Shown here in pieces: positions 7,807 to 34,800 of a stretch of DNA of 55,624 bases. The notes beneath the pieces were generated by a model, which worked only from the letters and a program-made list of their open reading frames with translations, did not search any database and was not told the origin of the DNA. Each line of letters opens with the position of its first letter. Positions within the stretch are counted from its first letter, which is position 1. This DNA is from Rhizaria sp. SCN 62-66 (Eukaryota), in NCBI GenBank assembly GCA_001724265.1, contig MEDY01000182.1, forward strand, positions 1 to 55,624. The letters are read 5' to 3'. The position numbers were made by a program, and so were the translations under genes.

Positions 7807-8384
7807 TTACTGGCTAAAGGGCACAAGGCGCACAAATTAGCACGTACATGTTTTATAAAGATCAGGTGAGAGGAATATCGGTAAGGAGCGCGAGAAGCAA
7901 GGAGACGAGAGGGGAAACGGGGTGAAAGCACGCCTCAAAGAAGGGCTCATATGCACTATGCCAACACGTTTCCTGCAGATTTCTTAAGTTGCACCGATTA
8001 TAAAACACATGTGTCAGCAAGGGCAAAATGCCGACATTTCGTTTAGTGGTCATGGAAGCGTAAGAACAAAGTGTTCAAAATGCAGCAGGAGACGTCGCCC
8101 TCCGAGTCTCTTCCGGTTCTTCTGAGGCTGAGACTGTGGGCGGTGGGACTGAGGGGTGTGTAACTGCCGCGTACGCTACTGCCGAAGTGCCTGGTATCTT
8201 ATACGCTCGCGGAGTCTTAATACAACTCAGGTTGACATTAATGTATTAACCGTTGCAAATTTTTTTCTGAATTATTGCAACTGATTTTATCAACGAAGTT
8301 ATATTTATATGAAAATATATGATGTTTTAAGATGGATATCCAGCTAAGATTGTCGAGGCACTCATGACAACGTATGGACATCAT

Positions 8385-9225
8385 TACGCAGAGCTCTAAG
8401 ATATAACGTGAAGCTTGTTGACGTCGGCAAACACGACTACGTACATCGATATCACTAAACCCTCGGCAAATAACTTGAGAGCAAGCCCCATGTACTGGAT
8501 AGCTTGCGGTCGCCTGAAGCTTGCAGTCTGTCGACTCGTCCTTCAAACGGGTCTCGAAGGTCCCCAGCTCGCGATAGACGTGGGCAACGAAGGAACCGAG
8601 GAGGCTCACGACAACCATAAGGCCGGGAGTTGCATGACGTCCCGCAGGCGTTCCCGCTGGAGAAATGGATGTGATGCGCATGCCAGCCTTCGTGGGAGCA
8701 GCCTCGAGCTAGTCTGCAACGGCGCGGACAGTCGCGCAACGGAGAAGTCGGCGTGGTTTGTGGCAGCCCTGGCCTTAAGGCGTGCGAGTTCCGCGTTGTC
8801 AGCGGCGAGTTCTGCGGCATTGGCGACAGAGGAGAAGTGGGAGAGAGCGTTCTTGGACCCGACATGGTGAAATTGCAGTGGGCTGATGTGAGCATCAACA
8901 CGTGCAAATACGGTGTATATGTACCATGGATATGCGGTATATATGTGATGTTCTTCATTAAGACCGACGCACACCGGCCCGTAAAACTATAGTTGTCGAT
9001 GGTGGTTAGATTGACAACGACGTTTGTGTTGCGCTTCTCTATTTCGCAAAAACTTGTAGTGTTGACTTCACTGATACTGGATAGACTCAAGAATCTCAGC
9101 CAAAGATTCAATTTGGGCCCGCGCAACAAAAATCCACGACACCTCAACGATGATGTCATTCTTTTCGACATCAAAGTTGGTTAGAACAATGTGATTTGAA
9201 TGTCCAACGTATGCTTTATACAAAA
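8385..9225 (-). pseudogene. Possible frameshifted gene remnant of unknown family (boundaries approximate)
   Basis: Protein-like segments lie in different frames: AELAADNAELARLKARAATNHADFSV / TVRAVAD*LEAAPTKAGMRITS...FETRLKDES / QAIQYMGLALKLFAEGLVISMYVVVFADVNKLHVI. No single clean ORF or clear splice solution joins them. Confidence 0.3.
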
Positions 9226-9323
9226 ACATTTTATTTTAAAAAGGAAACCTAAGTAAACATAATCAACCGTGCCCATCGTTAAAAAGATGAGCACAAGTCT
9301 CTCAAAATAGAATAAATCACAGA

Positions 9324-9369
9324 AATATATTTAAATACACACAGCAATATATTTAAATACACACAGCAA
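9324..9369. repeat. Tandem duplication of the 22-nt unit aatatatttaaatacacacagc (about 2.1 copies)
   Basis: Read directly from the sequence downstream of the VPS9 gene. Confidence 0.9.
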
Positions 9370-9476
9370 CATATTACCGTCCCATGTAATGTGGCATTTG
9401 GAGTGGTACAGTCTCATTTCCCTTCAAAAGAGAAGTTGTAGTCGTTTTGTCGACACATGACACATGATGTGCATAC

Positions 9477-12400: not shown

Positions 12401-15400
12401 GTGACCAGTGGAGGCGAGATGTGGTTGCCGGGCCACAGGCGCGCCCAACGGATCGCGTCAGCAGCGCGCTGCTGCCACAGCGCGTCCAGCTTCGGGGTGT
12501 TGGCCTGCGCAAGGAGAAGAGAACACAGAAAGCACCGAGTGAAAAGGTCGTTCAAATGAGATATGACAATGAATTAGATATTAATGAAGATAAAACAAAT
12601 AGTAACAGTTAAAATAGCAAAATAATTTAGAATGTGCATAAAAGTGAGGAAATTCGCGTACTTTAAGTTGCGCGAGAGTCTTTCGAATGGCCCGCGCTTC
12701 CTTCTCGTTGGGGTCGACAGCCCAGCGCTCCGCACACAGCCGAACGCGTGCCAGCGCCAGGACCTCTGCCTCGAGCGTGTCCTCGACGAAAGTCAAGCCA
12801 CCCACCGCGGTCGTCGTGAGGCCGCCTCTGGCGCCGGCGCTGCAGGCCGGCGGGCGGTGCGACCAGGCGACGGCCCGGGCAATGGCCGCCACCGCCGCCG
12901 CAGCAGTCACCGAGCCTGAGCCAGAGCCGGAGCTGGAGCCGGAACCGGACGCAGCGTTGGCGCGCGCCATGGTGAGGTGGTCGGCCGCGGCGGTGTAGAA
13001 GGCGCGCGCGGAGGTCGAGAGCGAGGACAGACTAGTCCACGTGGCGGGGGACAGAGAGGCGAGGTAGCTGGCCGGGATCAGCGATGAGACCCAAGGAGCT
13101 GTGTCCCAGGCAATGTCAGCGCTGTAGTTGGCGGAACTGGCGTTGTTAGAGTCGGAATCGCCCTGTTGGCGGGTCTCGTTCGCGGCCACCGTGGTGCTTT
13201 GACTGGTCGAGTTCGCCATGTTGTTGGCGCCGGGAGCGAGGAACCCCGCTGCCTCCACAAGCACCGACTGGGACATGCCGCCAACAGCAGCAGCACTGCT
13301 CTTGGACGCAAAACCAGATCCAGAGCCAGCGCCAGGGCTACCGGCAGCAGCAGCACTGGAGCTGGGGCTAAGCGCCAGCGCCGGCGGCGGCACGATGCCC
13401 GCGGCGCCCAAACTCATCGCGCTGTTGTTAGGGATGAACGAGAAGCCCGGCGACATCGGCACATTGTCAGCCGACATGAACCCGTTGCCCGCCCCGCCGT
13501 TGGAGTTCTTGACCGCGAGCGCGGCGTTGGCGTTGGCCGCGGCGACGGCCCGCGTGAGGAACTGGTGGATGCGCGCCGCCTTCTCAACCGCGCGCGCCGC
13601 CGCCAGGTGGCGGTTGATGGCGATGACGACGTCGACGACGCACAGCGGCGACCACGGCGCCACCACTGCGGTCGACGGCGGCGAGTCGACCGTGCTCGGC
13701 GGCGGCGGCAGCGACGGGGCGCCGGAGTGCATGCGGTTGTCGGGCGCATGACTCGTGCTGCCGCCGCTGCTCTTGCCCTTGGACTTGTTCGCACTGTTGT
13801 TACTGTCTACAGCGTCAGGCTCGCTGTCTGCGAGCTCCGGCGGCGGCGTCGGTGTCGGCGTCACGTCCAGCGTCTGCGCGAGACTCGCATTCTCACTGCC
13901 GCGGGCGACAAGGAACGACGACAGAGCCCATGCGTTCAGCGGAGTGACACTTACACCCACGCAGGTACTTACATTCCCGCCGCCTGCAGTAGCAGCGGCC
14001 GTGCTAGAGCTGTTTTGCGCGGTCACGGCCGCGGTGATGGCGGCTGTCAGTGCGGGCACCAGCGCCGCGCCCGTGGCCGCGCAAACAGTCGTCCCAGTCC
14101 AGGGGGCGAGCCCGATCGCGGCCGCTGCGGCGGCCTTGCTCAGACTCGCCTGCGACGGCGGCGGCTGCTGCTGCTGCTGCTGCTGGATGGGTGTGGTGCG
14201 CGTGACGTGCGCCGCGGCAGCCGTTGCGACCGCGGTGGCGGCGGAGGCGACTGCGTTGGCGGTGGCGAGCGCGACCGAGAGTGGCGGCGCCGACAGAGGC
14301 AGCGCGCCGTGGGCGGGGATCGCATATTTCTGCGCGTCGCGAGACGAGTAGTGCAGCGAGAAGCTGCCGGGGGCGCCTGCCAGCGGCGCTGAAGGCAGCG
14401 ACAGCGCAGTCGTGACGGTGTTTGCGTCAGCGCTAGCGGCGTTAGAGCTCACGCTACCGCTGGCGTTGTTGCTGTTGTTGCCGTTGTTGTTGTTGCTAGC
14501 GCTGGTATTAGTCGAGAGACCGAGGCTGATGGCGACACTGGTCAGTGCATCGACAGTGTCGTTGTTGTAACTATCCGGGCTCGAGTTGCCCGAAGAGCCC
14601 GCGCCGTTGAACAACGGTCCGACACCGATGCTCGTGCCCCAGTTGGCGATCCGTCCGGTGTTGTTCACGCTGTTGTTGTCGTGCATGCTGTAGTGGTACA
14701 CGCCCGTGCCGCCCACGGTCACCTGCGCGCATAGCACCTCAGTCAGCTTGCACTTGAACGTCACCGAGTGGCCGCCAGTCATGGCCGCGTCCGCGACGGT
14801 GGCGGCGGCGCCGGCGGCGACCGCGGCCGCAGCGGCGCCGGGGTCTGACAGCGACGCAGCCGGGTTCGCGGCGGGGACTGTGAGCACCGCGCGTCCGTCT
14901 ACGGCATTGCTCACGGTCGCGCGGCCGCCTCTGCCGCTCGCACCGGACATGTTGCTTTTGTTGTTGTTGTTGTTGTTGTTGTTGTCGTTGTTGCCGCTTT
15001 TGTTGGCGGCGCCGGCCTGACCCGTGGAGTAGCTGTAGCTGTTATTGTTGGCGGGGATCGGGGCAGGCAGCGCGGCGACGCGGCGCGCGAAGCCCTGCTT
15101 GAACGAGTTCTCGGGGGAATCGGACCGGGGGAACGAGTCCGCGCCCGTGGCCGCGGTGAACGGAGTCAGCGACCCGCTGCTGGTACCGTGCACGCTGTAA
15201 TCATCGGCGGCGTTGCTCAAGCACGCAGCGGCGTCGGAGGGACAGCAAGCGTGCGCGGCTGTGTAGTGTTGGCGGACGCGGGCGCGCGCTCGCTGCGACC
15301 GCGGGTTGTATTGCTCGGGCGCGGCGTTGCGGTACAGAGATGAGTGCGCGTACGTCGACTCGCACTCGTCATTGACAGCGTCGTCGTCGTCGTCCTGAGT

Positions 15401-18400
15401 CGTCTCAACAACGCTCATGTTGCGCATGACGGCGTGCGTGGTGTCGGCGTCGCTCTTGTTGTCCGCGCCAGCGTCCTCGCCCTCACCACCAGCCTTCTTG
15501 CTGTGGCTGGTGTCGATGATGACGGGGCTGGCTCTAGTCGCCGCCGCCGCCGCGACGGCCGCGGCTACAAGCCTGGGCGCCAACTTGCCCACCTTGTGCA
15601 GCACCGCCAGCGCCGTCGCCGCGGGGGTCGCCGTGCCCGTGACGTAGTTGGCCGCGCCCAGGTGGGTCAGGCGGAGCACGCGCGGCAGCTTGCGGCCGAT
15701 GGCGTTGACCTTGCTCACGGTCAACTCAAGCAGCAGCGGCGAGTGCGCGCTCGGGACCGCAATCAGCGCAATGGGAGGCGACGATGATGACGATGAAGAC
15801 GCGTTGCCGTTGCTCACCATTGCGCCGGCAGCAGCGCCGGCCGAGTCCGAGGCGGTACTTACACTGCTTTGAGGGGTACTTAGCCCCGTTTCGCGGATCG
15901 CGACCGCGGACACGCACGCCGACCGCGGTCCCAGCAGCCCGAGAGAGCCCGAGTCTAGACCGTCCCAGTGCCCGGCGTACACCTTGCTCGCCAGCGCCGC
16001 CAGCAGCAGCCAGCGTGGAGCGCGGGAAAAGGACGCAGCGCTGATGGTGTCGGGCAGCGCCGTGTGCGCGCGCGGCAGCAGCGGCGGGCTCGACGACGGC
16101 GCAGCAGCGGCGGCCACGGCGGCGGCGGTATTGGCGGACTCGGCCAAGGCGGACGACGACGTCAGCAGATTGGGCTTCGTCGCAGGTGCATCCGCTCCTG
16201 ATTGCGCAGTTCGGACGACGGCAGCGGCGTTCGAAGCGGACTGCGGGCTAGAACTGACCGCGATCGGAGCCCCCTCGGGGATGGGGGCAGCGGCAGCGCT
16301 GAAGCTGTTGAGGTCAAACACGTTCAAGTTATTCGCCGCATTCGCCGCCTTGTTATTACTGTTGACATTGACGTTGGGCGTGACCGGATCGTTGTTGAAC
16401 TGGGCCACACTCGACCGCCGCAGCCCGCGCGCGCGCGCCAGCGCGAGAACGGACGCGCGGGACCCGCCGGCGCTAGCGAACGCAGCCGTCTCGGCCGCGG
16501 CCAGCGCTGGGTACAACGGGGGCCGGCCGTTGCCGACAGTCGCATTCGTACTCGCACTATTGTTGTTGCAATAGAGTGAGGCGGCGTCGGCGTCGGCGGT
16601 GTCGGTCTTGACGCCAAGCTCGTCGGTGTTGTCACTGATGACGGACGCCGATGCGGCGGCGGCGGCGGAGGCGGAGGCCAGGGGGTTGCTGTACAACGAG
16701 AACCGGTGGGTCCTGGAGGCTGAAGTTAAGCCGCCAGGCGCGGTGGCAAAGATGGAGCCAGCGCGGCTGTTGCTGCGAGCGTAGATATTGCCCCCATCGG
16801 CCACGTTATCGCCGAGGTTATCGTTGGCATTGTCGCCGGAGAGCAGCGCAGAGAGGGGGTCACCGTCTTGCTCATCAGAGTCGCTCTGATTTGGCTCGAG
16901 CTCGTGCTCGTGGTCCAAATCGCCGTGTTTCGGGCTAGCGTTCGCGTACGTGCTGACGTTGCCGCCGTCGTCATCGTACACTTCATCCAAGTCGCCGCCG
17001 GTCCGCTGCGGGAAATCTTCATTCTGCATCTGCTGTTGCTGCTGTTGCTGTCGACTTGCCGCTGTGTTTGTATCGTTCATGTTCCCGTGGTTCTTCGCGT
17101 GCGACGACGCCGCCGAGGGAGGCTTGCTGTTTTGCAGCGGGGCCGGCAGCGACGGCACCGGAGGCGTCTCGGACTCGGCCACGACCGACAGCGCTGCGGA
17201 GCGATTGTTGACTGCGTACGCACCGCCGTTGGGCTCCGGAGAGTGGGTACGTGATTGTGAGCGCGAATGTGGCTGACTGCACTCTGGCGTCAGCAGCACC
17301 AGATCGTACTCGTCAGGCACCATGCCGCTACTCACATTCACACAGCTGCCGCCAGTGTAAGGGCCTCCAGTGTAAGTGCTCGGCCGCGGGGTGATGGTCG
17401 GCGTGCTGTTGTGCGGTGGCGTCGGCGGCAGTGGCAGCGGCAGACCGCGCAGCAGCGCCGTGTTGGCGTTGACGCCGATGCTGTTGGCGTTAACGCTGTT
17501 GAACGCACTACTAGCCGTGCTGATGCTGCTGTTGTTGTTGACTGTGGAGCGCCGGGGCACTAGTGTGTAGCGCTGCTCCGCGGCCGCCAGCGCGGCGAAA
17601 CTGATGCTCGTGACGGAATTCTCCCTGACCCCAGCGCCACTACTGCTGAAGTTAGCTGCATTGTTGTTGTTGCTGTTGTTGCAGCTGGAGTTGGAGTTCG
17701 AGAGCAGGAGAGACTTGCGCACGGCAGTGGTGCGCAGCGCGGCGTGGCGCGGGCACAGCGGGTCCCGACGGCTGCCCAAGTCGGGGTAACATGCGGGACA
17801 CGCGACTCTCGCACTCGCGGTCGCGGTCGCGGTGACAGCATCAGTCACGTCGCCAGCGCCGTTGCCACCTGCACTATGAGTGTGCGCGCCACTGTTTGCA
17901 GCAGCGACGGTTGATGAGCGGGGCGTGATGTGTGTGATGATGCCGCGGCCGCCGCCGAGACCGCTGCCGGCACCCGCTGGGCTCCCGGCGTTCCCCGCAT
18001 TCGTACTATGGGAGAATGCGTTGGCCGCGTTGACCGAGGCAGTGGTCGGGGTGCGCACAGTCAGAGACACGCAGTCACCACCAGCATGAGGGGCGGCGTT
18101 TCTACCACTCGTATTCGCAGACGCAGTCGCAGGTAGAGAGCTAGAGCAAGTAGTCGCAGTAAGCTGGGCACTGTTGTTGTTGGTATTGTTCGACTGAGGG
18201 AGGTAAACGCGGGAAAAAAGAGCCAGCTGCGCCTCACTTTCAATCGCACGTTGTTGTTGCTGCTGCTGTTGCTGCTGCTGTTGCTGCTGCTATTGCTGTT
18301 GCGCGAACGCTGTGTGCGGCGACAGTGGCAGCGGATCAGCGATCGACGGCATCGCGCGGGCTGCGGGCACGGCGGGAGGGCGCTGGTAAGAGCGCGCAAT

Positions 18401-18559
18401 CTCGCGGACACTACGCGGGGCAGGGTTCAGCTCCGCAGACTTGTTGCTCGCGCTGCCAGCAAGGATATTGTTGCTGTTGGCAGTGGCAGCGGTCGGCATC
18501 GGCTGGGGCTTAGAGGCGCCGATGGGGATCGCGGCAGAGGCACGGGGAGGGGAAGACAT
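9477..18559 (-). CDS. Giant VPS9-domain protein (Rab5-family GEF); exons 18559-12662 (in-frame TAG at 18292-18290), 12504-10177, 10015-9822, 9621-9477; about 2854 aa
   Basis: C-terminal VPS9 motifs: PSERVDCLLDTAKAIY, LAADDFFPIFVYVLIHA and GEAGYYLTVFEAALDYI. Intron phases match. The N-terminal ORF (18559-18290) joins ORF 18070-12581 in frame across a TAG in a poly-Q run. Stop TGA at 9479-9477. Confidence 0.85.
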
Positions 18560-19380
18560 CGCACCAGAGAGCTAAAAAAACAGCGATGGGGCAGATGCTT
18601 ATGTGGGCACGGCCGCAGGAGCAGCGCGGAACTGTGAAAGAAAGAGGAGTGTGTGGGATGGAGGCGAGTAGACACACTTGAAGAGCACAGAAAGATGTGA
18701 AGGAAGTGGGATTAGATTAGGTTACCGGAAACAAGCTGGGCATGACACAGTTCAAACTTTGTTTTAGATCCCAGTAGTATAGTCATATTTATAACGAAAT
18801 GCAGTTGCGGAATATTTGTTAACGGTTAATTCTAGGCACAAGATTCAGTATTTTGGGGTGCCAAGTCGCGACTGCCGGCATGCGACCCAAACTGTGATTT
18901 TTTGAGAACCGCTACCGTGCCAAAGCGGCAGCCACCAACGGGTCTCTGATTCATCCTTGTGGGTCTATATGCATCGCAACTTGAATATTTTTGCCTGTAA
19001 TTGAATGGCATGAGACATTTATTTTAGCGATAAATAATATTTGATTTTAGTTTCTGCCCACGATCTCTAACCAGGTTTTTCAATTGACTTTCTCTCCGTG
19101 ATTGCCCCTTGCTATTCACCTCCTCAACATTGTTTTTTGCCTCCGTCTGACGCCGTCCATAAGGCACAAATTGCCTCACCGGTATATCGCACGCTTTTCC
19201 AGTAAATAACTAGTTGTATTCCTGCTCGATTACTCGAGGTACGCGTATATTGGCTTACAGGCAGTCGTCCTAAGCTCTGGCCTCCATCTACTCTCTTTCC
19301 GACACCGCCAACGCTGACCTCCCACCTCTCTCACACCAACCAAGCGTCCACTCTCAAGGGTCCGCGCACTTGCGCCAACT

Positions 19381-20874
19381 ATGTCCGGCGTTTTTGCGCG
19401 CTACCGCAAGCTCGACACGATCGGGCGCGGCACCTACGGTGAGGTCTCGCGTGTCGTTCCCTACTCTGACACGAACCTCGTTTACGCCCTCAAGGTCGTC
19501 ACATGGAGCAACCAGGCCGAGCGCGATGCTGCGCGGAGCGAGGCTGCGCTTATGAGCTCGCTGCCGCGACACAAACGGCTTATCTGCTGTGTGGAGATCT
19601 TTGAGGACTCGGACCAGCTTGCCATGGTGCTTGAGTACGCCCCGCTCGGCGACCTCACCAGCATCATCCAGGTGCGTCACTGCATCATAGTCTCAGTTGC
19701 AACGTGTATATCTCTTATTTTTAAACTGACAACAGGCGCAGACGTGCAATTGATGCATCTCTAGACTATATTACAAATTTGACGCTTGAAACTAATCTTG
19801 ATTCTTCATTTCAACTTGTTTTCACACCTGCACACAGGCGCACCGCGACGCCCGCACTCTTCTGCCGGAGGACGTTTTGCTCCGCTACATCATCGAGCTC
19901 GCTGAAGGACTCGAGCACCTGCACAGATTCCGCACGCTCCACCGCGACGTCAAGCCCAGCAACATCTTCATCGACGCCACGGGCAGTCTGAAGCTCGGCG
20001 ACCTAGGGTTCGGTCGGACCCTCAGCATGAACGCGATTGGAACCAAGAGTCTCCACGTTGGCACACCGCTGTATTACGCGCCGTAGCTGTGTCGCGCGTA
20101 CCTGCCTCCGATCAGTCCGCAAAACCAACATCACGCACAGCAACAACAGCTTCAGCAACAGCAGCAGCCTCAGCAGCAACAGCAGCAGCATACACAACCG
20201 CAGCTTCAGCAACAACAGCAGCACTCGCAACAGTGGCAGCAATGGCAGCCTCACCTGCTGCAGCTCCAACGCCCCACTCCGACGCTCCGCGCAGCCACGC
20301 CGGTGTTGTCGCACCAGTCGAGTGGACTCGGCCACTCGCCGCACGTGTCTGCGTTCAAACTCGTCGCCCCGTCGCCGAAGCCCAACAACAGTAACAACAA
20401 CAACAACAACAACGCGGCCATGTACGTGCAATCGCCCGCGTTCACCCCGCTGCCGCCGACCGCGGCTGAGGCTGTGCCTGCGGTCGCGACTCTCGCCCTG
20501 GCCGCGGACACTGCCGCGGTAGCGACTTACTCGTACCCCATCGACATCTGGTCCCTCGGTTGTGTGGCGTACGAGCTCGCGACACTGGCCCCGCCGTTCA
20601 CTGCGTCGACGCTGCCCGAGCTTGCGTGCGCAGTCGTCCGGTCACCGACGCCGACTATCTCGACGAACATCTACTCCCACGCGCTCAGCGGCTTGATTTC
20701 TAGCATGCTGGAGAAAGACCCACAGCGCAGGCCCACGGCGGGCGCGGTGAGGCGCATTGCGACTGCGCTGCGGGAGGCATATGAGGCCCACAGTAACTGC
20801 AACGCGAGCACGAACACGGGCTCCAGTTCGGCGAACATGAACATGTACGCGATGGCAGAGACTCCGGTTCAGCC

Positions 20875-20906
<32 letters not shown>

Positions 20907-23900
20907 GGCAGCAGCAGATGACACCGACGCGGTACTTGCATCAAAGGCACTCACAGTCACCCTTAGTCGGCGGCGTCAGTCTGTTCGTCGCGCGCGCCAG
21001 CCCCCGGGGTGGGCCAGTGAAGGTGCTGTCGAACAGTCCATACCGGCCGGTGCCTTTGCCTCCGTTCGGTTCGCAACAAGGGCAATCGCTATCGCCGTCA
21101 GAGCAGCTTCAACAGCATTACGCATAGCATGTACAGCTGCAGCCGCAGCAGTTACAGCAACAGCACGGCGCATTATTATTTTATCGTCAGTCTCCTGTTC
21201 CGTCACCTCCCACAAACGACAACCCTGTCATGACCCGTATCAACAGCGCCGCATCCAATGTCATGGCGCCCGCACCTCTGCCCGTTGTTGCGAGCAATTC
21301 AGCTGGCGTACAAGTGCTCCGCAAGCCGTTCGGGGCAACGCGGCTTAACTTCAACGACCCGAAGCCGACTGTTACGCCGGCAACGCCGCGGACCGGATCC
21401 AACACTGTGAGTGCGAATGCAAACGCAGGCGTGTTTGCATCACCGTCTCAACGCTATCTTCAAGCAACTGCAAACATGGACGACATGAACTCAACCAACA
21501 ATATCAACAATAATGGCTATGCCGCAAACACAAGTGCTGTGTATTCCGGCTCCACCGCTCATGCGACTGGGAGCGATGCTCTGAATATCACGGATGCAAA
21601 TGCTGCCGACGTCTCTACGTCTGGCTTTAACACGAGTACGTTCAAGATCGTAAAGCCGATGACACAAGAGGAACGTCCTGAGATGACACCTTTGCGTTTT
21701 CCCCAACCGACGCAACAGCTCTATGGACAACAGCAAGTGCAACTGCAGCAGCAAACCCACGCATTTACTTCGTTAGCCTCTGATCATGTCGATACAAGAA
21801 CCACACAAAACGCAATGGTGATGACTGCTGCAAACGCTGCAGGTTCGACCTACGATGTTCCGACCAGTGGCGCAGCCACACACTATGGTGGTTTCGTCTC
21901 GCTCGCAACTGCCACTGCAGACATGTGGGAGGTCGACAAGACGGTGAATAGCCATGCCCACAGTGGCGCCAATAGCTGCAGCAGCAGCAATGGCGATGCC
22001 AACAGCAACCACCGTGCGAACGCGAGCAGAAGCACGAATGGCATCGACAGCTACGGCTACAACCGCGACTTTTCGTTCCGGCTGCCGATGCGCGCTGACT
22101 ACTTGAACAACGACACGGTCGTCACCGCCTCCACGAACAACACGCTCCACTCGAACGCGAACGGTTCAGTCGCTGTCAGTTTTAACACTAAGAACGCGGG
22201 CGCGAATGCGAACAATAGCTCTGGTGACAATGCCAAGGCTGTTGGCATGATCAATAACTCTCTCATCGACGTCAATAATGTTAGCACTGGGATGGGCAAT
22301 GCGGGTGTTGCCTTGCATAATGTAAGTACTGGTGCGAGTACGAGCGGCATCGACAAGTCGGCACTGCGCAGTGCGTGGCTGCAGCATATCTCTACACATA
22401 TTGTGGAAACCCATTCGGCAACATCTACTGCTGCCGGAACGAGCACGTCTAATCATGCTCTTCTGAGTCAAGCACGCGCGGCTGATACGTACAACCGCAC
22501 TGAGGCGACTGGTGGTGTCATTGGCTCCGATGACAATGCTAATGAGAACAACATGCAGACAGAGGCTGTCATGACTGTCACTCTCACTGAGCCTGTTTTG
22601 GAGACTCCCCCTCAACAAAACACGGATGTGGCCGCCAAGCACCACGACGACCAAGAGTCGCAGAATCAGCCGCAGCAGATGCTGCTGCCGCTTATCCTGC
22701 AATTGGACCAGCACTCCCCGTCCTACTCTGCCGTACCGAGCCCCTCAAACGCCCTTAACAGCTATTTGGACGGTCCTCGCAGGCCGCACTTTGCGCCGAA
22801 TCACCTCTACCCTCGCTTGGTTGAGGACCAATTTGACGACGCCGGTGTCAGTGATGCGCAGAGGGATGGCGCGATTGTTCGTCACAGCCCCGACCTAAGC
22901 GCAGTCAGTAGCAGCAGCAGCAGTGCTGACAATAGCTTTACTGCCGCTACGTACAACCGTCCGTCAGCTCCTGTTGCGTTCATGCATTTCAACGGCAACA
23001 ACAGGAGTCTTAACCATAGCAATGATGAAGAAACTGTGAACAATAGTCTTGGCAATGGGGGCTACACCAACTATCTCGCTGGCAGGAGTAGCAAGAACAT
23101 GTTCTTTGCGTTTGGCACTCCTAGTAGCACGACAACGACGACCAACTCGTCCGGAAATGGCGTTACCACGACGACCACAACCACAACGAACACGAGTGAC
23201 ACAGGAAACAACGAAGACTGCGTCAACGACGATAACGCTGATGTAAACGCAGTTGCTGTCGGGAACGATTCATCGGCTATGTCACCGTTCGGCTCCCCGG
23301 CGCCTGCGTACGTTTCTACGGCGGCCGCGGTAGCAGCTCACATGGGCGCGAAAACCGGCGAAATCGCACGCAAGTCAGCCAGGTATTCTCTGAAGGCTAC
23401 AGCCGCTGCAGCCACTGCGGCTGCGCTTGCTTCGGTTGCATCGTCCAGTATTGCAAACGCGAACAGTATCCGCAGCGCGACCGTTAGCTCTTCTTCTAAC
23501 ACTGATTTCGTGAGCACCTCTCTGTATGCTCCTGCTTCGTCTGAGATCGCTGCGAATGCTCAGTCGCTCGTCCGGTCCGAGGTTAAGCCGCGCCAGCGTC
23601 TCGTGCTGCACATGTACCAAGGTGATGACCACGACGACAACGATGATGAACGCAAGACCGATGTTGATATTGCGAGCCGTAGTGTGCGCAAGGGACTTGC
23701 TTTTGACGATGTCGATAGTGACAATGACACTGACAGAGCCATCAACACCATGCATCACGTGCACAATTCGACTGCTGCAGTCGCCGGCAACGAGAGTGAC
23801 GGTGAACAGAGTGACTGCGAGGACAACGCTGGCGTGGCTCATATTCAGCATGTCCAATATGGCCATAACGACAATGTCCACAACAGCGATGACGAAGACG

Positions 23901-26553
23901 CTGGTGATGATGACACCGCTACCGATGACGCACCTGGTGCTGATTACGGCAACTTTCCCCAAGGCAGCCGCGACGCATCTCCCGAGCGCAGCTTTGCGTC
24001 CCCTGTGCACCGCCACTCGCCACCTGACCGCCGCCACTCGACGCGTTCTCGCCCGCGCACGACCACAAAGAACAGTGACGGCAGCGTCAATGCTGTTATG
24101 AGCGATAACGCAACCGCTGTAGCGACGCTTGACACTGAGTTCGCTGCCGCTGCGTCTGCCTTGCTTGCGATCGCGCCGCTGCCCGCAGTCACGTCGACTC
24201 AGTCTGTGGTCGCCACCGCGAGTACAGTGAGCGCCGTGCCCGCAACGCCGACGCTGCCGAAGCCCGTGTCGTCATCTCCCGACTCGTCATCGAATGGCAT
24301 GCTTAGTCCTGCAGCGCGCTCGCAGTTGCGCCTGCTCCGCAAAAAGCTCACGCCGCCCACAAACAACAGCACTAACCCTGCTGAGACTGGATCTAAGCCC
24401 GTCGGCGCTGTCTCGCACTCAACTGCGCCTCAGCCTGCCGAGATGGCTCCCCTGACAGATGTTGCTAAACTTTCTGGTGCGAAGTGGCGCGCTGCGTTAG
24501 AGGCGGTCGCTTTTGGCGATGTTGATGAGGGTGCCGCAGTTGAGGCCGAGATCGAGTCTGAATACGCAGAACTATATCAGCGTAGCAACGATACTTACAC
24601 TAACAGTGTCAACCACGAGCACAACGCACAGTCACAACACTTACATCTGCGCTCACGGTCGCGGTCGCGGTCTCGTACTCGGGTCAATCTGGCTCAGCTT
24701 GATGACTACTCGCACTCGCGCTCGCGCTCACGCTCACAGTTGCAGTCTCGGTCTAGATCGCAGTCACGCTCGCAGTCGGTGACTCCCCGTATGGGTGCTT
24801 TGGTCGCGCAGATGGCCGAGCTCGAGCTTACTGCTGGCGGCTTAGGCAACATGACATCCCCGCGCCGGCGTAGCTATATCTCATCTCTGAACAACACGGC
24901 GGAGAATGCAGGTGCCGTCGACAATGGCTTGGAATCGATGCAGCTGCCGACAGTCAATAGCTACCGTGAGCTTGACGACGCTGATAGCGATGAGACTCGT
25001 GAGCATGCTGATGTCAATGACAGTGCGACTAGTGCAACTTCTGGGAACAGTACAGTACAGCTCCGGTGTTTGCTTCGCTGGCAACGTGCTCGTCCTAATA
25101 CTGCAACTGTCAGTGCTACTAATAGCGCCCTGGCTTCTACCGCAGTCTCAAGTGTTGGCCAGTCGCCGCGCCGTCACTCCGCGGTCAACACTCCCCGCCG
25201 TCCGCACACAGCGCCAAGCAACGTGCACGGTGAAACGTGTGCGATGTCGCCGCGTGGCCACAGCAGCTCTCCGAACGCGAGCACCAACCGCAGTGCAAAC
25301 AGCGAGGGAGTTGTGTCGATACCACTGACACGGTCGCAGCACGTCGACGGCGCTGACACATCTAAGTACCTTTCTTCGGGGTACTTAGACTGGGTTAGCG
25401 CTCTCATTCATCACCCTCGCGCCAACAGCACGAGCGCCAGCGTGGTTGACATGAGCAACAGCGATACTTGCAGTGAGAGCAACGTTGCCAATATGCAGTC
25501 GATGCCTGCCACGAGCACTGAGCCCGTGTTCCGCAACCGCGTCATCTACCCCTTCGCGCGCCACAGCGTCAGCTCCACTCTTGCCCGTTCGCGCCCGCTG
25601 CTGCTGCTCCTACAGACCAACGGACCCGCGCCGGACCTACTCTCGGTCCGCGTGCTCTACGGCGGCAAGCAGAGCGCGCAGCTGGCGCAGACCGCGCGCC
25701 TCTGGCCCATCCCGGTCCCGCCCTCTCTGCAGGACGCGAACCTCGCTCGCCTCGCGTCCGGTGACAGTCTTGTCGCGGTTGAGGTGCCCACGGTCGTGAC
25801 TCTGCCTGGTGAGAGCGCTGGGAACGGTGGCTGGGCGGTCCCGACTGGCATCTACCTCGAATTCGACAGGGCTAACCCGCTTAACGCGCTGGTACGTCTA
25901 ATGCACACCTGCTAGGAAGGATTTATTACGATGCCCCTATAATCTATTTATATGTATCTATACTCATGTCTTTTTTTATTGCTCACTCCTTATCACTCCA
26001 TTTTTGTGTGTGTATCTTTTAGACTGTGTTTCAAGGCCCGTCCAGCGCTCTCGACAGCTTGCAAACGCTGTCGGCCGCCGCGGTGACTCAATTCATCGCC
26101 ACTGCATCTGCGAACAAGGCGAAGCCTCAGCCCGTGCGCGCTCAGACGCAGCGTGCTGGGGTTCACTCTAACGTCGCGACACCGTTGCAGTCTGCCAGGC
26201 GGCCTGCACAGTATGGCGATGCGGGGGCGAATAAGGAGAACAGTGTGACAACGATTATGGTGCCGGCGTCGGCTCGCAAGCCAACATTGGGCAGTAACAA
26301 CACGGTGAGCGTTATTCGCGACACTGCTGCCTCGAGTAAGACTGTTAAGAATCTCGACGATAACGCTACTGCACGCACACCGATGCGCACGCTCTCGAAC
26401 GCGAACTCCAACGCAAACAGCGTTAGCACCAACTTCACGAACAGCAACGGCATGACTACTCCACGGAAGACGGTTAATGTTGCCATCAGCAACAGCACTC
26501 AAAAGAACACCAACAGCATCACTCTCAACAGTGCGCGCAAGGCATGGTTATAA
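19381..26553 (+). CDS. NIMA-related (NEK-family) Ser/Thr kinase with a long low-complexity tail; exons 19381-19671, 19838-25891 (in-frame TAGs at 20084 and 21125), 26023-26553; about 2291 aa
   Basis: Kinase motifs IGRGTYG, YALK, HRDVKPSNIF, KLGDLG (DLG occurs in NEKs), GTPLYYAP, DIWSLGCVAYELATLAPPF and MLEKDPQRRPTA. ORF pieces 19877, 20303 and 21230 share one frame and are separated only by TAG. Stop TAA. Confidence 0.88.
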
Positions 26554-26670
26554 GATCATCTGCGACACTAATGTATTCTTGCTCGGGAATCGTAATCATG
26601 GTTGACGAGTGAGCTCGTGCTCGTTTACTTGGATGTGGGATTTAAGTTTAATTAATGCACAGATTCTTGT

Positions 26671-29600
26671 TTAACTTAAGTCAGAGTACTGGCTGTTGTC
26701 GTTGTTGACATCAACGCTGCCACTCGCCGTTTCCGCGCCGACAGCAGTTGTGTTGACTGCCGCTGTTGTGATGTTATCGCTGTCAGTCATCGGCACTGTG
26801 TTGCTGCCGACACTATCACCCACACTTGCAGCTGCGCTTTCGTTTGCAGTATTTTGCGCGCTGCTCGTGTTTGTTGTGTGAAGGTTGTCGGCTCTGGTGT
26901 TCGTACCTATAGCTGGCTCCGTTGCTTGTGCGGTAGGTTTGCGTTTGTACAGCGCGCCAGCACTCCCGTGAAACGATCCAATCCCGCTCGTTGGGGCGTT
27001 ATATTGTGGCTGCTGCTGCTGCTGCTGTTGCTATGAAGGCTGTTGTACAGGTTGTTGCTGCTGCTGTTGTTGGTGTTGCTGCTGCATGGCAGCTGTGTCG
27101 GTGAACGTGCTCCTGCTGGAGGCCCAGCCAGACCCAGCGCCGACAACAGGGGCAGCCACACGTGCAGGCGCTGCCGCAGCAGCCGCTGCTGCAACCGCTG
27201 CTCCCGCCTTCTGCTGATGCCGCGGTGCCTTAGTTGTCGTAGCCGCAGTTGGCACAACGCGCTGCTGCTGTTGGAGAGGATGCTGCTGCTGTGGCTGCTG
27301 TTTGGCGACGAGGCCGGACTGTAGCGGTAACAACCGTTGCATAGCCTCGACCGCGGTTGCGACTGACCCTCGACGCTGCCACCGCCACCCGCAAAGCCCC
27401 CCAACTGTCGTAGGTTGCGGAGCTTCTGGAAACTGTGCTGCGTCGATGAGCAGGCTGGCCGCGTCAGTCGTGACTGGGGTAGCTGACAGAGTGTGTGCGA
27501 CGATGTTTGCAGCAGCGTCAGCGATGGCCCTTGTCACTGAAGGGGTCGCCGTAGATGTGGTTGCTGCACTGTCATAAATGCTTGCATGTGTGCTTGTAGA
27601 AGTGCTCGCGGCACCGAAAGGCAGGATAAGCGATGACTCACGCAACGGCTAGTTGTTTTAACATATCGATCACAACGAAAATCGAGGCGTACTTTTCGTT
27701 AGACAGACAATCACGATATTACGTACGAATGATATTTTAGTTTTTTAGTTTTCACTTAGACATTTTAAGAATTTGATCTTTTAACCGCTCGTGCAATGGT
27801 AATAGAAACACTCTTTTCATATCGTACGGACCCGAATGATCGCTTCGTTCTCAGTCGCTACAATGACGTAGCGACTGATATACGGTAACTCGCGCCCGGT
27901 CGTGCCTGCTGCGGCACCGACCCAGCCAGCTCCTCCGCTGTACTCACAGTCACTCTGCGACTGGATTTGGCCTTGAGGGTCGACAAAGTGCATGTGACCC
28001 GCAGGATTGTGACTGCCCCACAGCACAGCGGCGCCGCTCTGATCCCTCGCCCTTGTCACAGCGGATGTAAGCACCCTTAGACTGGCCGACTCCACCACAA
28101 GCGCCTCACCCGACAGAGCCAGCGCGCGCAGCAGGGCTCGCCCAGCCTCCGCTTGCGCTGCCAGCGCGGCTGACCCGCCAGTGGCTTCGTCCTCGGCGTC
28201 GGCGACTGTGGCGACGGCAGCTGCAGTGAGGTCAAGCGGGGTCGTTTCATCGTTGCCGCCGGCACGAGCGCTGCCGTTTGCGGCAGCGCTGTGACCGCTT
28301 AAGCCACGGTGACTGCTACTCCAAGCACTTGATGATGTCCCGTGGGCGCTAAAGTGCCCTTGAGCAGTGTTCGCCAGTGCGCTCGCGCTCGCGAGAGACC
28401 GTGGAAATGCTCCAGGTGGCAGCAAGCCAATTGTAAGCGGCAGCGGCTATCCAGGCGCGGCAGTCACAGTGGCACCGGCTGAGATGCCAACTGCAGGCGC
28501 CAGCAAACCTGCGACGGAAACGCCGTCAGACAACGCACAGTCACGCGCCTGCGATTGCATCTTTGAGACAGATACAAAACCACTTGCTGCGCTGGCCCCA
28601 ACCCCAGCGCCAGCACTCGCGACCGCAGCGGCACTTGCACTGGCGCCAGAACCCGTGTATGCGTGTACACCTGGCGTGGTTGTTGCAGGCAAAAACGATG
28701 ACGTTGACAACGCAGCTACAGCGGCTGTGCCCCGCAGTGCGCTCGCTGTCAGCGGAACAATTGCTACCACAGGCTCCGTGAGGTACATCGTGGGTAGCAA
28801 AGAGCGGGGCAAGCGAGCGACAACGACAGCTTGTGCGGCGGCAGGCGCAGATGGCAACGCAATCGCCTCTGTAGCAGGGCTCTTGTGCACAGCATCGGTG
28901 TGACCGCTCTGGTTTGCTAGAGAGAGATCCAAGCCGTCGTTGTCACTGTCACTGCCGTCCGTATGCGTACCGACAGAAGCATCTTGCAAACTAGAGTCGG
29001 CATTGTCACGAGTATTGGATGGAATGTTCTCATTGTTCAGATAGAGTGCTTTGTCGAGAGCCGTTGCATCAAAGCTCAGGCACGATTCCTCAGAAAATGT
29101 GTCGTGTCCATCACTAAGGTAGCCGTTTTGGCTGCGTATGTCCTTCTCTGCAATTAGCGCAGCGGGTGACCCTGAGAAAGCAAGTGCTACGCCTTGAACT
29201 GACTCAGCTAAGCGGGCACGCTTACCGGTCACACTACAGTACCTGACACTGCCGCAGCCGATACCACTCACGGGCGCAAGCACGCTGGGATTGGAAATTG
29301 TTGTTGCACCTGTACTAACGGTGTCAAGCTCGTTGCTACTGCTACTACTGCTGTTTTTGCTTGCTGTTGCGCCTGCACTGCTGAATATATGTGTGGAAGT
29401 GGCTGGAAGGCGTGAGCTCGCGTGTGTATGTAAAGGCTGCCGATGACAAGCGCATAATAGAGTCTCGGTAACATTAGGCGCTGGCAGCGTTAGTGCAGAC
29501 GGTAGAAGTGTGAAGTCACAGTGAAATTCGTGCATGTTGCTGTGTGTTGCAGGAGCCTGGTCATCGGCCGCTGCGCATGAGCTGGACTAAGCACTGTTCG

Positions 29601-31331
29601 GAGCATGTGTGTCATTGTCTTGATATGGGAAATGAAGCCGGAAAAGCCGTGCAGTGCAGTCCCTACAGAAAATTAAAAAACAATGAAGAATCCAATATGG
29701 TGACTAATATTGAGAAGTATTTCTTACATGTTGAATTGTTCGTTCAAACCTGTGCTTAAACCGTACGTACTGTTTGAAACGGGTCACTTCGCTCATCTGC
29801 GCAAGTGCGACCTGGTCGCTCACACAGTCAGTGATAGTACTGACTGGGTTTGACTGCGAGTAGTGGGAGCCACGGCAACGAAGGAAACCCATGCTCAGTG
29901 ACTTCTGGTCGAAGTTAGACTGCGTTGTTAAACTACCGGAACTGACGGACAATGGCTGAAAGTCAGAGTTAAACTCACCATCTGTCAGCGGCGGTAGCGT
30001 ACTCAAGAACGTATTGAAAGATCCCGCAGCCTCTATCTCACGACGCATATGTTCAGCCGTGCTACCTGATCCGCATGTGTCATACAGTGTGCCTGTACCG
30101 ATGCTCCCATTTGTGTCGTACTTTGCATCGTCAGTCTCGTTGTTGTACGCTCTTACGCTGCGACTACTCGTGTCGGTATCGCTCGTGTTTGTCGCGATGC
30201 GGCTTGACTTCAAGTAGTACTCCGCCGGCGTGGGAACAGCAAGGAAGCTCAAGCGTGTTGCAGGCGGCTCCAAACCAAACGCCCAATCATATGGACCAAC
30301 GGGTAAACTAACGCTAATGCTCGCGTGTGTGTTGCCGCTGAACCCACCCTTGCTCTTCGAGCCTCCACGTCCTGATGGTGTCGTCGTGGTGTTTGTGGGC
30401 GTGTGACTAACGGTGTTCGTATCAGCAGACACCAGACCAGGATGCATTATCGAGGACGCGGATGATGATAAACGAGTCTTGCTGGCAACTGCTGTGGCAA
30501 ACGCATTGGCTTGGCTTTGAGGCAAGAACTGGCACGCAACAGTAAGCTGCGGTTCTTGCTCATCAACAGCACCACCCGCACTCGCACTTGCAGTTGCGCT
30601 TGACCGTTGGCCTTGGGTCGGGATAGCGTTCCCATTGGTGGCATGACTGCATGTCTTTTGAACGCAGAGTAGAGGGCTAATGATGGTGGCGTTGGTACCC
30701 ACAGTCACATTCGCGGCCCACACTGCAGCACTCGCACTCGACGCCAGTGCGGCCGCAGCCAGAGCGTGGTTCCTCTGCTCTAGATACCTCGACAACTCGC
30801 GCAGGGCCTCTGGCAACAGCTCAGCGCTAGATGCAGATACCGGCGCGCCACTTCCGCTGTAAGCAGTGAGTGTCGATAGAAGTGATGTTGATGACGCTTG
30901 CGGGAGCGGTGACACCCGCAAAAAGCCGGCAGGCAGCGTGCGCGCCTTGACCGAGGCAGTAAAGTTCTTGAGGGCGGAACAGCTGTTGAACAACGACGCG
31001 CCTGGAGGAAAAACCCAGTATAACCCTCCCTCCGCCGCGGAGGGTGTAGGAGGACAAAGAAACGCGAAGGCAACGTCGACGAGCGAGCCAGGGGACGCAG
31101 ACTTGAGGATAACACATCGTGCGAAAAGAAAAGATGATAGATCCTCGGATAGAGTCTGAAAACATCGAGAGGTATGCACAAGTAATCACATGAGTGCTTG
31201 AAATAAACCGTAGATAATGAGTCGCGAGCAGTATGGTTGCGAAGACGAACCTCGAGCATCATGTTGTGGTCGGCGAGAGAGAGTGTGCTGCCGGACGCAG
31301 GAGGGCGCACATCAAGGATAATTAGATCCAT
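26671..31331 (-). CDS. Hypothetical low-complexity protein; exons 31331-31251, 31155-29771, 29662-27832, 27648-26671; in-frame TAGs at 29589-29587, 28449-28447, 27033-27031; about 1424 aa
   Basis: ORF fragments join in frame through GTNCGT-AG introns and three TAGs, ending at TAA 26673-26671. No family recognised; exon 1 is less certain. Confidence 0.65.
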
Positions 31332-31850
31332 GGCTTTCTGAGTCTTGTTAAAACAAAAAGCTTTACTATGGATGCTGAGAGCGGAGTATGTGTTTCAAGA
31401 GGTCAAAGGGATCACCTTTGGGACTGACTTGAAGAAGACGGCGCGAAACGACTGTGTGCGAACAACAAAATCCAGAATACACACGGATAAAAACAGCCAT
31501 ATAATTAGACACCAACACAATACTATGTCACTATGTGTTGGGTAATTTATCCAGCTGTTGACCTTTCTGTCGGCCCACACTTTAAGTTGGAAGACGAATA
31601 GTTTTATGCGACGACTGATTTTTCAAGTTGGAACGGAACGACTGTGAGCACTTGAGACCAGAAAAGAATACGTTGATATATCTTCTTTGCTATCGTCAAT
31701 AGCGCTAAAACTTGTGCAGAAAGTTTCAATTAAACCAAACTCTTTCCTTCTTCAACCTCACAGTTATCAATTCTATTCCTATCGCACACTTGCCGCTCGC
31801 ATAACAGCCGGAAGCATCGAAAGGACGTAGGCCCGCTCTTCTTTGCCGCC

Positions 31851-34800
31851 ATGGCTTTCTTCGATGCCATGGGCAACGCCATGTGCCGCCTCATTGCCAC
31901 GTTAGATAGCAACAAGCCGGCAGCTCAGTACCCCGCTGTCATTGCCGCTAGCGAAATCGTTGGCGCTCTTGATCTCGCTTCGCCGTCATCCGAAGTCCAG
32001 GCAGCGTCGCCTGTTGCAAGCACTTTAACACTAAACTTGTGCGGGGCCTCGGGGGAGCTCGCACGTGCAGCACAGATTCTGCTAGACGCACATGTGTGTT
32101 TGGCTCCTGTTACCTTGGCACTTCCTGTTGTATTTCATGCTGACCGTAACACTCATTCAAGCGACTGCGTAACTAACTCCAGCTACAACGCGAGCGTTGA
32201 CAACTCGAGCTCCAGCTCCTTGTCATCAGCACATCCAACAACAAATCGGTACTTGTAGCCTTGCCTTGCGTTGCGCCAGCAGTTCCCGCTGTCGCTTCCG
32301 AGTTAGCATAACCAGCTGCGACAGCAAGCGCTGGTGCACACTCAGGCGCAGCGGCGCGCAAACGACGCTGGTCCCGAGGCGACTGCAAAGCTTGCAAAGG
32401 CCCGCGCAGAGGCAGAATCGCAACTGCGGGTAACTGTTAACAGCAGCACTATTGCCCCACATTTTTACGCGTTTCGCTACTACGCAAATCCTAGCACTCA
32501 CGGCACAGATTTCAGGAGTCAAACTACTTCGGCTGATGATGGTGTAACGGTTTCAGCGGTGGCGGCGGCAGCCGCAGCAGCTGGGCGCGTGCTGGTACCC
32601 CTGCCGTCTGTTACCGAGTGGCTGCAAAGCAAGAGCAACATGGGTCGTGTCGTTTCTGCTTCTTGCAGCTCATCGCAGCTATTGTCGTACAGCTCTCGCG
32701 TGGTCGTGAGTTACAGTGCGGGCGATGCCGCTTTGTGTTGCAACGTTGGCTGCAGCAGCCAAGAAGAGGCTGACGCCGAGGCGGAGGCTGTTATTGCAGC
32801 TGATATTGCACGGGAGCAAATGGAGCTAAAGCGGGCATCAGACGTGTCTAAAGGGACAGTTCATTGTTACACAGTAGCCTCACTTGCGGCATACGGCCCC
32901 TCACGTGCGACTGCAGCTTATGACGCGCGCCACGGTCATGGCGGCATTACTAACAGTAGTGGCCCAGGACACAACAACACGGGCTTAAACTCGAGCGGTG
33001 TTTGTACAACAGCAGAGAGCGAGGGCGACGCCAACAGCAGTTTACTGCAGCTGAACAGCCGATTGCAGTCACAGATGCAACATGAGCAGCAGCGGCAACT
33101 CCAGCTACTTGACTACCATCAGCAACGATTGTACCTCCGGCAACAGCAACAAAGCGCAAGTGATATTAAGTCCTCGTCATGGTTCCTATCGCGTGTGAAG
33201 TCCTTTTTCTCTTTCAGCAATGATAATAATACTAGCAGTGGTTGTTTGACTGACGGAAGCAGCGGTGACAGAAACCATGGCAAGAACGTCACATATCAGT
33301 CCCACGTCGCTGCCAGTGCGCTAGGTCTGGCGAATGTTTTTAGTCAACGTGCCAACTTAGCTGTGGGCGGCGGGCCACCGCGCGATGCAAGTGGTGGACT
33401 TGGTAGAATTGACCGTGAGCATTGCCAGATTCAGCAAGACGAAGAGGAAGAAGATGGCCTCTATAAGGGTGACAAGGGTGAAGGGCTACGGTTGCAACCG
33501 CCTCTGAAGTCCCACCAAAATGGAAATCTGCAGTCGCCGCCAAAGTCACAGCCCTATTCACGGTCACAGTCACCGTCATCACTGCCACCACCCTCTTCTC
33601 ACAGTGGCTCGCGCGCGCTATTGCAGCGGCAGTTAACACCGAGTTGTACGTCTCAGTCCACTGCAAGCCCTCTGTCGCGCGTTAGCCACATTCACTCTGA
33701 CATCGTATCAGGCGCCGCAGCCGGCGGTCATCCCGCCAGCTCAAGCAGTCTTAGACAGTTTGAGGTTGAGCTTACTGCGCAACGGCTGGCCGCGACAGAT
33801 GGTGTTATTGTGATCGAAGGGCGCCGCTTTTACACCAAGCCTATTCCAGCATCTTTGTTGCCCCAGCAGCAACAACAGCAAGAGAAACCTTAGCAGCATG
33901 AGTGCAAAAGTGGTGACGCAGTGACAGCGCTTAAGACTCAAAACCCCGGTCTTGCGCTTGCTATCGAGCTAAACAATAGTTTGAAAAGCTTTGGCAATGG
34001 TAGCAGCGGCGCGCCTAATAACGGGAGTGGTGCGGGCAAGAGCCCCGCTGTGGGGCAGCAGTTGACTGCTGCAATGTCGGTTGCGCAGGCTTGTGCTGGC
34101 ACGCACCCGGGCCTGTCGCTTGCATCGATTGCTGTTAGTGGGGCACTCAAAGCTGTCTGCGCTCACAGCGACATTAATAATAACATGAACATGGGTGTGA
34201 AAGGTTTTCCTAGTCTTGTTAGAGCTCCGAGTGCTGCAGGCCTTGTGGTTAATGTTTCTAGCGTTGCATCTGTAGCAGCTAATAGTGCAGTTAGTGCAAA
34301 GGCACCAAGTCTATCCACGCCTGTTGCAAATGACGCTCAAGCAGCGACGTTACGCCGCGGAGTGCACACAGGTACTGAGCACATTGAAGGCCTCTCACAG
34401 TTACCGAAGCACCTGCCTCCTGCAATCCCCTTGCATTTACCGCCGGGTGCATGCCAACTGCTGAAACCGCTTCCATCCCTCATAAACTACATTGATCCTG
34501 ACATGACAAGCTTGACCAGAGGCATGTGCATGAGTACAAGTACGGTGGAAGTGCTCACGGCAACTGAAACGACTGTGACGCCTCCGGGCACCACGACGCG
34601 CTTTAGCGTTGACGATGCCCGCACTGTCGCTACTGCTATTGAGCAAGCTTGCGCGGAGGCAGAAGCAGCGGCAATAGACACAGTGGCATCCGTTGCAGCT
34701 GCTCTTACCTGTGGTAACTGTGCGGCATACTCTAACTCAAGTGCTGCAAGCACTCGCATTGACCGCAACATTGACAGCGCCGTAAGTGACGCTAGCGCTA

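Follow-up and report, generated by a model that had tools for sequence, protein, structure and literature searches.

Nine in-frame UAG codons in nuclear DNA of an uncultured wastewater eukaryote point to a code in which UAG is probably sense and UAA and UGA terminate

The window examined here, the whole 55,624-nt stretch of contig MEDY01000182.1 (55.6 kb), is free of N and ranges from 47 to 75% GC across 2-kb bins. It carries a eukaryotic gene set that includes ribosomal protein S26e (rps26), sdhC, a four-exon ABCF gene, BPI/LBP (minus strand), a gene with a VPS9 domain, a NEK-type kinase, a giant trehalose-phosphate synthase/phosphatase gene (TPS) and, at the right edge, a ubiquitin gene. The window recurs, at least in part, in public sequencing runs (11 rows from six studies, all bioreactor, wastewater or activated-sludge metagenomes of 2015-2025), one of which (X1) may be the window's own source sample. 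Four or five of the genes contain in-frame TAG triplets, and our reading, to which we assign a probability of about 0.8, is that the window is nuclear DNA of an uncultured wastewater or bioreactor eukaryote in which UAG specifies an amino acid and translation stops at UAA and UGA. An earlier note on this DNA, hereafter the original prediction, had placed nine such triplets in the window; TAG was read at all nine positions on the strands given, with the frame open on both sides of each. The genes concerned and the TAGs within them are the following.

12584-18559, minus strand: first large exon of the VPS9 gene (1992 codons; ATG at 18559; GC content at third codon positions, GC3, 0.78)
18290-18292, minus strand: TAG at codon 90 of the VPS9 gene, counted from the ATG at 18559, inside a polyglutamine (polyQ) run of CAA and CAG
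19381-26553, plus strand: NEK6/7-like kinase gene with exons 19381-19671, 19838-25891 and 26023-26553 (ending in TAA) and introns 19672-19837 and 25892-26022
20084-20086, plus strand: TAG aligned with the Glu of the APE motif (GTPLYYAP-TAG-LCR) of the NEK kinase
21125-21127, plus strand: TAG in a Q-rich linker of the NEK gene
26671-31185, minus strand: orphan gene or genes, with open reading frame (ORF) 27817-31185 (intron 29663-29770) followed by the same-frame ORF 26671-27657
27031-27033, minus strand: TAG that opens a polyQ run of ORF 26671-27657
28447-28449, minus strand: TAG with ORF segments of 379 and 209 codons on its two sides
29587-29589, minus strand: TAG that follows a predicted 108-nt in-frame intron at a distance of 25 codons
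31851-40508, plus strand: CaaX gene, an orphan of 2885 codons whose product ends in a CaaX-type box, CNIM, followed by TGA
32256-32258, plus strand: TAG at codon 136 of the CaaX gene
32304-32306, plus strand: TAG at codon 152 of the CaaX gene
33891-33893, plus strand: TAG at codon 681 of the CaaX gene

Statistically, the stop-free stretches before and after these triplets are long: 89 (from the ATG) and 1902 codons at 18290, 82 (from the exon start) and 346 at 20084, 346 and 1595 at 21125, 205 and 119 at 27031, 379 and 209 at 28447, 25 (from the 3' splice site) and 379 at 29587, 135 (from the ATG) and 15 at 32256, 15 and 528 at 32304, and 528 and 2204 at 33891. Under a composition-matched null, a first-order Markov model of 19838-40505, runs average 28 codons, reach at least 205 codons with a probability of 6e-4 and attain a maximum of 336 in 100 simulations. 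The flanking runs lie far above this null, and thus both sides of the TAGs are coding, or were so until very recently. With TAG read through, the frames delimited by TAA and TGA extend over 2005 codons (12581-18598), 328 codons (26671-27657) and 1122 codons (27817-31185) on the minus strand, and over 2046 codons (19802-25942) and 2924 codons (31734-40508) on the plus strand. In the ~8,580 codons of the TAG-bearing genes we counted nine TAG, no TAA, no TGA and no frameshift, which bears out, by a partly circular count, the earlier claim that neither TAA nor TGA stands in frame. Three other in-frame TAGs (at 29701, 25913 and 1101) are intronic and had rightly been left out of the original prediction, and two more TAGs, at 27649-27651 and about 18572-18574, belong to a low-GC or upstream segment.

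The ten gene ends that we checked were TAA in seven cases, TGA in three and TAG in none (the original prediction had likewise found no TAG, among nine ends), and this distribution is consistent with the loss of UAG as a terminator, short of proof. In sdhC and the NEK gene, the stop codon is reached after a terminal intron.

TAA ends: rps26 (287), sdhC (940-942), ABCF (2545-2547), BPI (6334-6336), NEK (26551-26553), the 26671 ORF, and the 40845 ORF/TPS
TGA ends: VPS9 (9477-9479), the 27817 ORF, and the CaaX gene (40506-40508, directly after the C-terminal CaaX box)

In databases, predicted proteins of the locus are cut exactly at TAGs (P0130 comprises residues 1-135 and P0128 residues 162-680), an effect of the standard code on the CaaX gene.

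Functionally, the NEK gene shows what lies beyond one of these triplets. Pfam Pkinase matches both of its parts, and NEK7 is among the best solved-structure matches (E 8e-30). The kinase C-lobe is present past TAG 20084, with query residues 234-312 aligning to NEK7 213-295 (HMMER) and with subdomains IX-XI in which every checked motif is intact; the motifs kept in the kinase are the Gly-loop, Lys, HRD, DLG, GTPxY, DIWSLG and DPxxRP. The original prediction had held that the frames reach conserved domains in two genes, and this stands for the kinase. For the VPS9 gene it is conditional, as joining the VPS9 domain matches (9480-9680, E 3.6e-6; 9734-10228, E 1.1e-3) to the gene with TAG 18290 requires at least two inferred introns; the 12584-18559 gene probably continues via 10156-12573 to the VPS9 exons (9480-10228) and the TGA at 9477-9479. 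Between the APE motif and subdomain IX, the kinase has a Q/N-rich insertion of ~147 residues (20087-20527, plus strand), and a contig of the polyA-RNA library X8 (20431-20789) is colinear over its 3' border, so that no intron lies there.

Independent assemblies agree on the triplets themselves. Contigs of four runs were placed on 18000-34500, with the repeat 18246-18304 skipped, and those of run X3, which comes from another study, show 0 differences over eight of the nine TAGs. These are contigs 18878-20380 (TAG 20084), 20922-22332 (21125), 25750-29052 (27031 and 28447), 29060-30354 (29587), 31022-32799 (32256 and 32304) and 32932-34500 (33891), each with 0 differences. Run X4 represents a second strain, with 27 listed single-letter differences, and retains TAG at 20084, 21125, 27031, 29587 and 33891: its contigs 18516-20360 (20084), 20922-21942 (21125), 28465-30540 (29587) and 33487-34500 (33891) are unchanged at the TAG, and contig 26390-27181, over TAG 27031, has 0 differences. 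No listed difference falls on any TAG in any run, and a Joint Genome Institute metagenome contig of the same organism (L001, 1841 bp) has TAG at 20084. Read errors are thus excluded by independent contigs and a second strain that are unchanged at the TAGs, and neither CAG nor GAG was encountered at the eight sites that the contigs cover. The strain differences also number nine in the 821-nt intergenic stretch 18560-19380 versus 24 in ~14.3 kb of coding sequence, a density ~6 times lower in coding sequence, and the TAG-bearing genes look constrained.

Across the window, usage of TAG varies with codon bias. It occurs at ~1 per 1000 codons in genes or segments of GC3 0.53-0.78 and is absent from the 6,382 codons of five ORFs of GC3 0.81-0.90 or similar, namely:

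ABCF exon 1
BPI, 6337-7806, minus strand
10156-12573
40848-44126
TPS

Neighbouring genes contrast in GC3, at 0.78-0.90 for ABCF, VPS9 and TPS (window positions 4014-18289 and 40845-54467) versus 0.53-0.68 for NEK, 26671-31185 and the CaaX gene (19838-40505), and every exonic TAG falls where the bias is weak, either in a weakly biased gene or, within VPS9, at the 5' end.

UAG could instead be dual, a terminator in some genes that is efficiently read through in these by a suppressor or near-cognate tRNA, which would make the code an ambiguous intermediate rather than a completed reassignment. We consider this unlikely. The rarity of UAG and its absence from the GC3-rich ORFs would suit such a code, as would the C that follows eight of the nine TAGs (a significant excess over the background, in which C makes up 0.24 of first codon bases), C after a stop being the weakest termination context in eukaryotes. 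However, composition may explain that C, since its excess is not significant against off-frame TAGN, which is most often TAGC (0.52), or against the base after CAG, which is C in 57% of cases; three early TAGs in one gene would leave almost no full-length product unless efficiently decoded; and TAG is found at 0 of 10 gene ends. The codons after the TAGs are CAG, CTG, CAT, CAA, CCG, CCT, CAT and CAG, with TAG-TCC as the exception. Programmed readthrough, with a single leaky stop near the end of an ORF, was rejected: there are up to three TAGs per gene, one lies inside the kinase catalytic domain, and others stand at codons 90, 136, 152 and 681 of genes of 2000-2900 codons.

Alternatively, the TAGs might be gone or altered by the time the mRNA is translated, because an unrecognised intron uses the AG of a TAG or encloses the triplet, or because RNA editing turns U into C. 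Each TAG does end in AG, the genome has short introns, and the TAGs at 29701, 25913 and 1101 are truly intronic, yet we hold this to be highly unlikely. The seven introns that could be read directly start with GTACGT or GTGCGT, end in AG, span 108-189 nt and have a GC content of 0.31-0.38 (they are few and short, so that the description of the organism as intron-rich in the original prediction is an overstatement), whereas the 60-nt bins holding the nine TAGs have a GC content of 0.50-0.65, and the only low-GC segments inside the TAG-bearing frames are intron 29663-29770 and a 3' tail. With exon-like GC at all nine, the TAGs are thus not intronic. Conserved kinase residues immediately precede TAG 20084, and an intron from a nearby GTACGT to TAG 29587 would measure 184 nt and shift the frame. 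Transcriptionally, contigs of library X8, which carry the alleles of the X4 strain, are colinear and unedited over three of the nine TAGs (21072-21229 at 21125; 32058-32454, with 0 differences, at 32256 and 32304), in a library that possibly bears DNA. Stretches lacking X8 cover carry no weight either way, and run X5, recorded as RNA-Seq and flagged as probably DNA, was left out of the RNA evidence.

A further alternative, which we judge slightly more improbable still, keeps the standard code and takes the TAG-bearing genes as young pseudogenes or the TAGs as segregating nonsense alleles. These genes are indeed fast-evolving, low in complexity and without homologues, and the strain differences comprise eight synonymous and 16 non-synonymous changes. 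The kinase exon drew one match, at 42% identity, in a word-based protein search, and among metagenomes only the same-organism contig L001 and an unrelated prokaryote-like contig of 44% GC (L002). The protein of 27820-29661 had no homologue in a protein search except the window's own fragment. For the CaaX gene, no Pfam domain was found in the product, and HMMER found no homologue of residues 1-1200 among 1.84 billion representatives, the matches being three of its own TAG-truncated fragments and one chance-level match (E 7e-5). Against decay stand the ~8,580 codons without a frameshift, TAA or TGA; random nonsense would be TAG about half the time, which gives 0.5^9, or ~2e-3, for nine TAGs out of nine. 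Additionally, the TAGs are fixed across samples of 2015-2025 and two strains, the density of differences is ~6 times below that of the adjacent intergenic stretch, and the kinase has kept its catalytic motifs. Finally, assembly or sequencing error at sites that are truly CAG or GAG has a negligible probability, with nothing seen in its favour, the X3 contigs identical at eight of nine sites, the diverged strain X4 retaining at least five and contig L001 retaining 20084.

Several points weigh against UAG as a sense codon. At a TAG share of 25%, finding 0 of 10 TAG ends in this single window has a probability of ~0.06, and no tRNA, no Rfam match and no eRF1 was found within the 55.6 kb. The absence of in-frame TAA and TGA is partly circular, since TAA and TGA delimited the ORFs. 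The ratio of eight synonymous to 16 non-synonymous strain differences implies weak amino-acid constraint, and eight of the nine TAGs lie in lineage-specific, low-complexity sequence without homologues, with one at a conserved column. TAG 18290 falls in the skipped repeat 18246-18304 and has no listed independent contig. The RNA evidence is moderate only, because X8 (one library, seen as assembled contigs) covers intergenic 18709-19094 and spans no intron, so that carry-over of DNA is possible. That intergenic contig, between the divergent VPS9 and NEK genes, could represent long 5' untranslated regions, an unannotated transcript or DNA in the library. Weighing all of this, we maintain that UAG is probably read as sense and that UAA and UGA are the stops, as had originally been proposed, on the basis of the window statistics, the independent assemblies, the second strain and the exon-like composition. 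Mechanistically, we posit a dedicated tRNA with anticodon CUA that would read UAG but not UAA, together with an eRF1 that would recognise UAG weakly, and UAG would then be a rare and probably poorly translated codon.

As to the amino acid, the original prediction had proposed that UAG is probably Gln, for which the alignments give little encouragement. TAG 20084 is the one triplet of the nine at a conserved column, where VGTPLYYAP-TAG aligns with VGTPYYMSPE of NEK7 (HMMER) and with SPE in the single relative (BLASTP), which places it at the Glu of the kinase APE/SPE motif. This Glu, in subdomain VIII of Hanks and Hunter, is nearly invariant in kinases and is paired with the Arg of subdomain XI, which is present here (DPQRRP); Leu at the APE position is implausible. 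Four TAGs lie in or adjoin polyQ runs, a context that is expected from CAG-to-TAG change anyway: transitions predominate ~3:1 among the strain differences, amino-acid change is near-neutral, and CAG is the commonest one-step neighbour of TAG, so that, regardless of what UAG means, most TAGs would go back to CAG in Q-rich sequence that tolerates change. A naive-Bayes score of neighbouring residues preferred Gln over Glu by ~25 log units (ten TAGs, including the intronic 25913), and we did not count it because two polyQ sites drive the score and the CAG-to-TAG origin confounds it. Thus, Glu is favoured by the sole conserved site and Gln by precedent, and we rate the two alike, each a real possibility at somewhat under even odds, with all other amino acids together unlikely. 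The fuller proposal, that UAG encodes Glu with UAA and UGA as terminators in a GC-rich, intron-bearing, non-ciliate host, possibly related to labyrinthulomycetes and early in the change, with UAG as yet rare, is advanced tentatively and is a little less probable than Glu taken by itself.

Elsewhere in the window, ORFs 27817-31185 and 26671-27657 may be one gene or two. They are separated by a segment of 167 nt with a GC content of 0.32 (27650-27816), and ORF 26671-27657 has no early ATG, for which reason the segment may be an intron; contig 27687-27938 of X8 follows the genome colinearly through this segment. A GTACGA...TAG splice pair between the two ORFs was rejected, the resulting intron of 179 nt breaking the frame. 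The TPS ORF (3432 codons, within 40848-54467, minus strand) appears to run on into the 1093-codon ORF 40848-44126 across a short intron near 44130-44170, and the combined gene would have ~4500 codons, mostly low-complexity. At the right edge, the ubiquitin-family ORF 55313-55624 (plus strand; Pfam E 8e-24) appears to carry several substitutions relative to canonical ubiquitin. The presence of sdhC is consistent with aerobic respiration, and in this the earlier description of the organism as aerobic agrees with the window.

Evolutionarily, the ABCF gene offers a lead. Among the matches listed, the closest ABCF3 proteins are environmental (78, 61 and 59% identity), and those of named eukaryotes reach ~45% identity or less over most of the query. 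In a quick single-gene tree of 26 of the 120 listed matches (the named ones and the closest environmental ones), the window protein falls in a fully supported clade with ten environmental sequences, and that clade is sister to the labyrinthulomycete Hondaea (Shimodaira-Hasegawa-like approximate likelihood ratio support 91). This weakly hints at a labyrinthulomycete-like stramenopile affinity, as a lead rather than a placement. Environmental ABCF3 proteins P0004-P0009 (56-78% identity) form a fully supported clade with the window protein, and one of them is encoded on a 264-kb contig, which suggests an unsampled eukaryotic lineage in public metagenomes; a database entry also leads to a contig of 172 kb. 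An ABCF scan of a genome collection returned bacterial loci in 80 of the 80 listed, and protein-cluster look-ups led to generic ABC and TPS clusters only. In gene length, introns and GC content, the sequence is clearly not ciliate-like. The independence of the reassignment, raised in the original prediction, would depend on this tentative lineage.

Reassignments of UAG alone, as listed in PMC11687900 and PMC5304391, comprise a rhizarian (Leu), Iotanema (Gln), Scotinosphaera (Ser), phyllopharyngean ciliates (Leu once; Gln twice) and Protocruzia (Gln), and the discussion of PMC11687900 gives UAG as Glu only for a ciliate in which UAA is Lys. A full-text literature search, without supplements, found no report of UAG as Glu with UAA and UGA as stops, and none of a UAG-only code in a wastewater eukaryote or a labyrinthulomycete. 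The fornicate Iotanema spirale is described as reading UAG as Gln with UAA and UGA as stops, its tRNA(CUA) being inferred and not found (PMC5304391, PMC11687900). As in Iotanema, UAG alone would be reassigned here, in-frame UAG is scarce and UAA is still a terminator; unlike that organism, whose group is described as anaerobic, ours has sdhC, a GC-rich genome and giant low-complexity genes, and its lone conserved site points to Glu instead of Gln. For the rhizarian exLh (Sainouroidea), PMC5304391 gives UAG as Leu from 71 genes with 384 in-frame UAGs aligned to conserved Leu columns. The window organism would share with exLh a UAG-only code outside the ciliates, and exLh avoids UAG in highly expressed genes as the window organism does in GC3-rich genes, whereas the window has nine UAGs in four or five genes, none of them at a Leu column. 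Among ciliates, PMC11687900 lists UAG as Leu in three phyllopharyngean TARA metagenome-assembled genomes and as Gln in Hartmannula, Trochilia and Protocruzia, with 78-91% of genes using UAG and suppressor tRNA(CUA) genes in two genomes. These resemble our case in having UAG as sense and UAA as the main terminator, and their tRNA(CUA) is the mechanism proposed here; unlike the phyllopharyngeans, the window combines spliceosomal introns (108-189 nt) and genes of several kb with far lower usage of UAG.

Oligohymenophorea sp. PL0344 is reported to read UAA as Lys and UAG as Glu (PMC10553269, PMC11687900). It shares with our organism the reading of UAG that the kinase site favours, but its UAA is sense, whereas UAA ends seven of ten genes here. 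The green alga Scotinosphaera, with UAG as Ser and UAA as a stop (PMC11687900), is likewise a non-ciliate UAG-only case, and Ser is supported by no site in the window. Codes in which a codon is stop or sense by context, as outlined in that source for Condylostoma, karyorelicts and the UAA of Blastocrithidia (PMC11687900), also place a standard stop triplet inside genes; there the same codon ends genes as well, whereas here TAG is found at 0 of 10 ends (n = 10) and a single triplet is in frame.

Thus, the window likely adds a non-ciliate member to a known but rare class of code changes, and should UAG = Glu prove true, it would be a new code variant. Codes that split UAG from UAA are rare, and PMC11687900 and PMC5304391 name a handful of lineages, mostly ciliates. 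The lineage of the present case would be unrelated to these, and it turns up repeatedly in wastewater data of 2015-2025. Practically, standard gene callers truncate the proteins of this organism at each TAG. Biologically, the case would give one more independent observation on how UAG becomes uncoupled from UAA, and the low usage of UAG, with its restriction to genes of weak codon bias, could reflect reassignment at an early stage.

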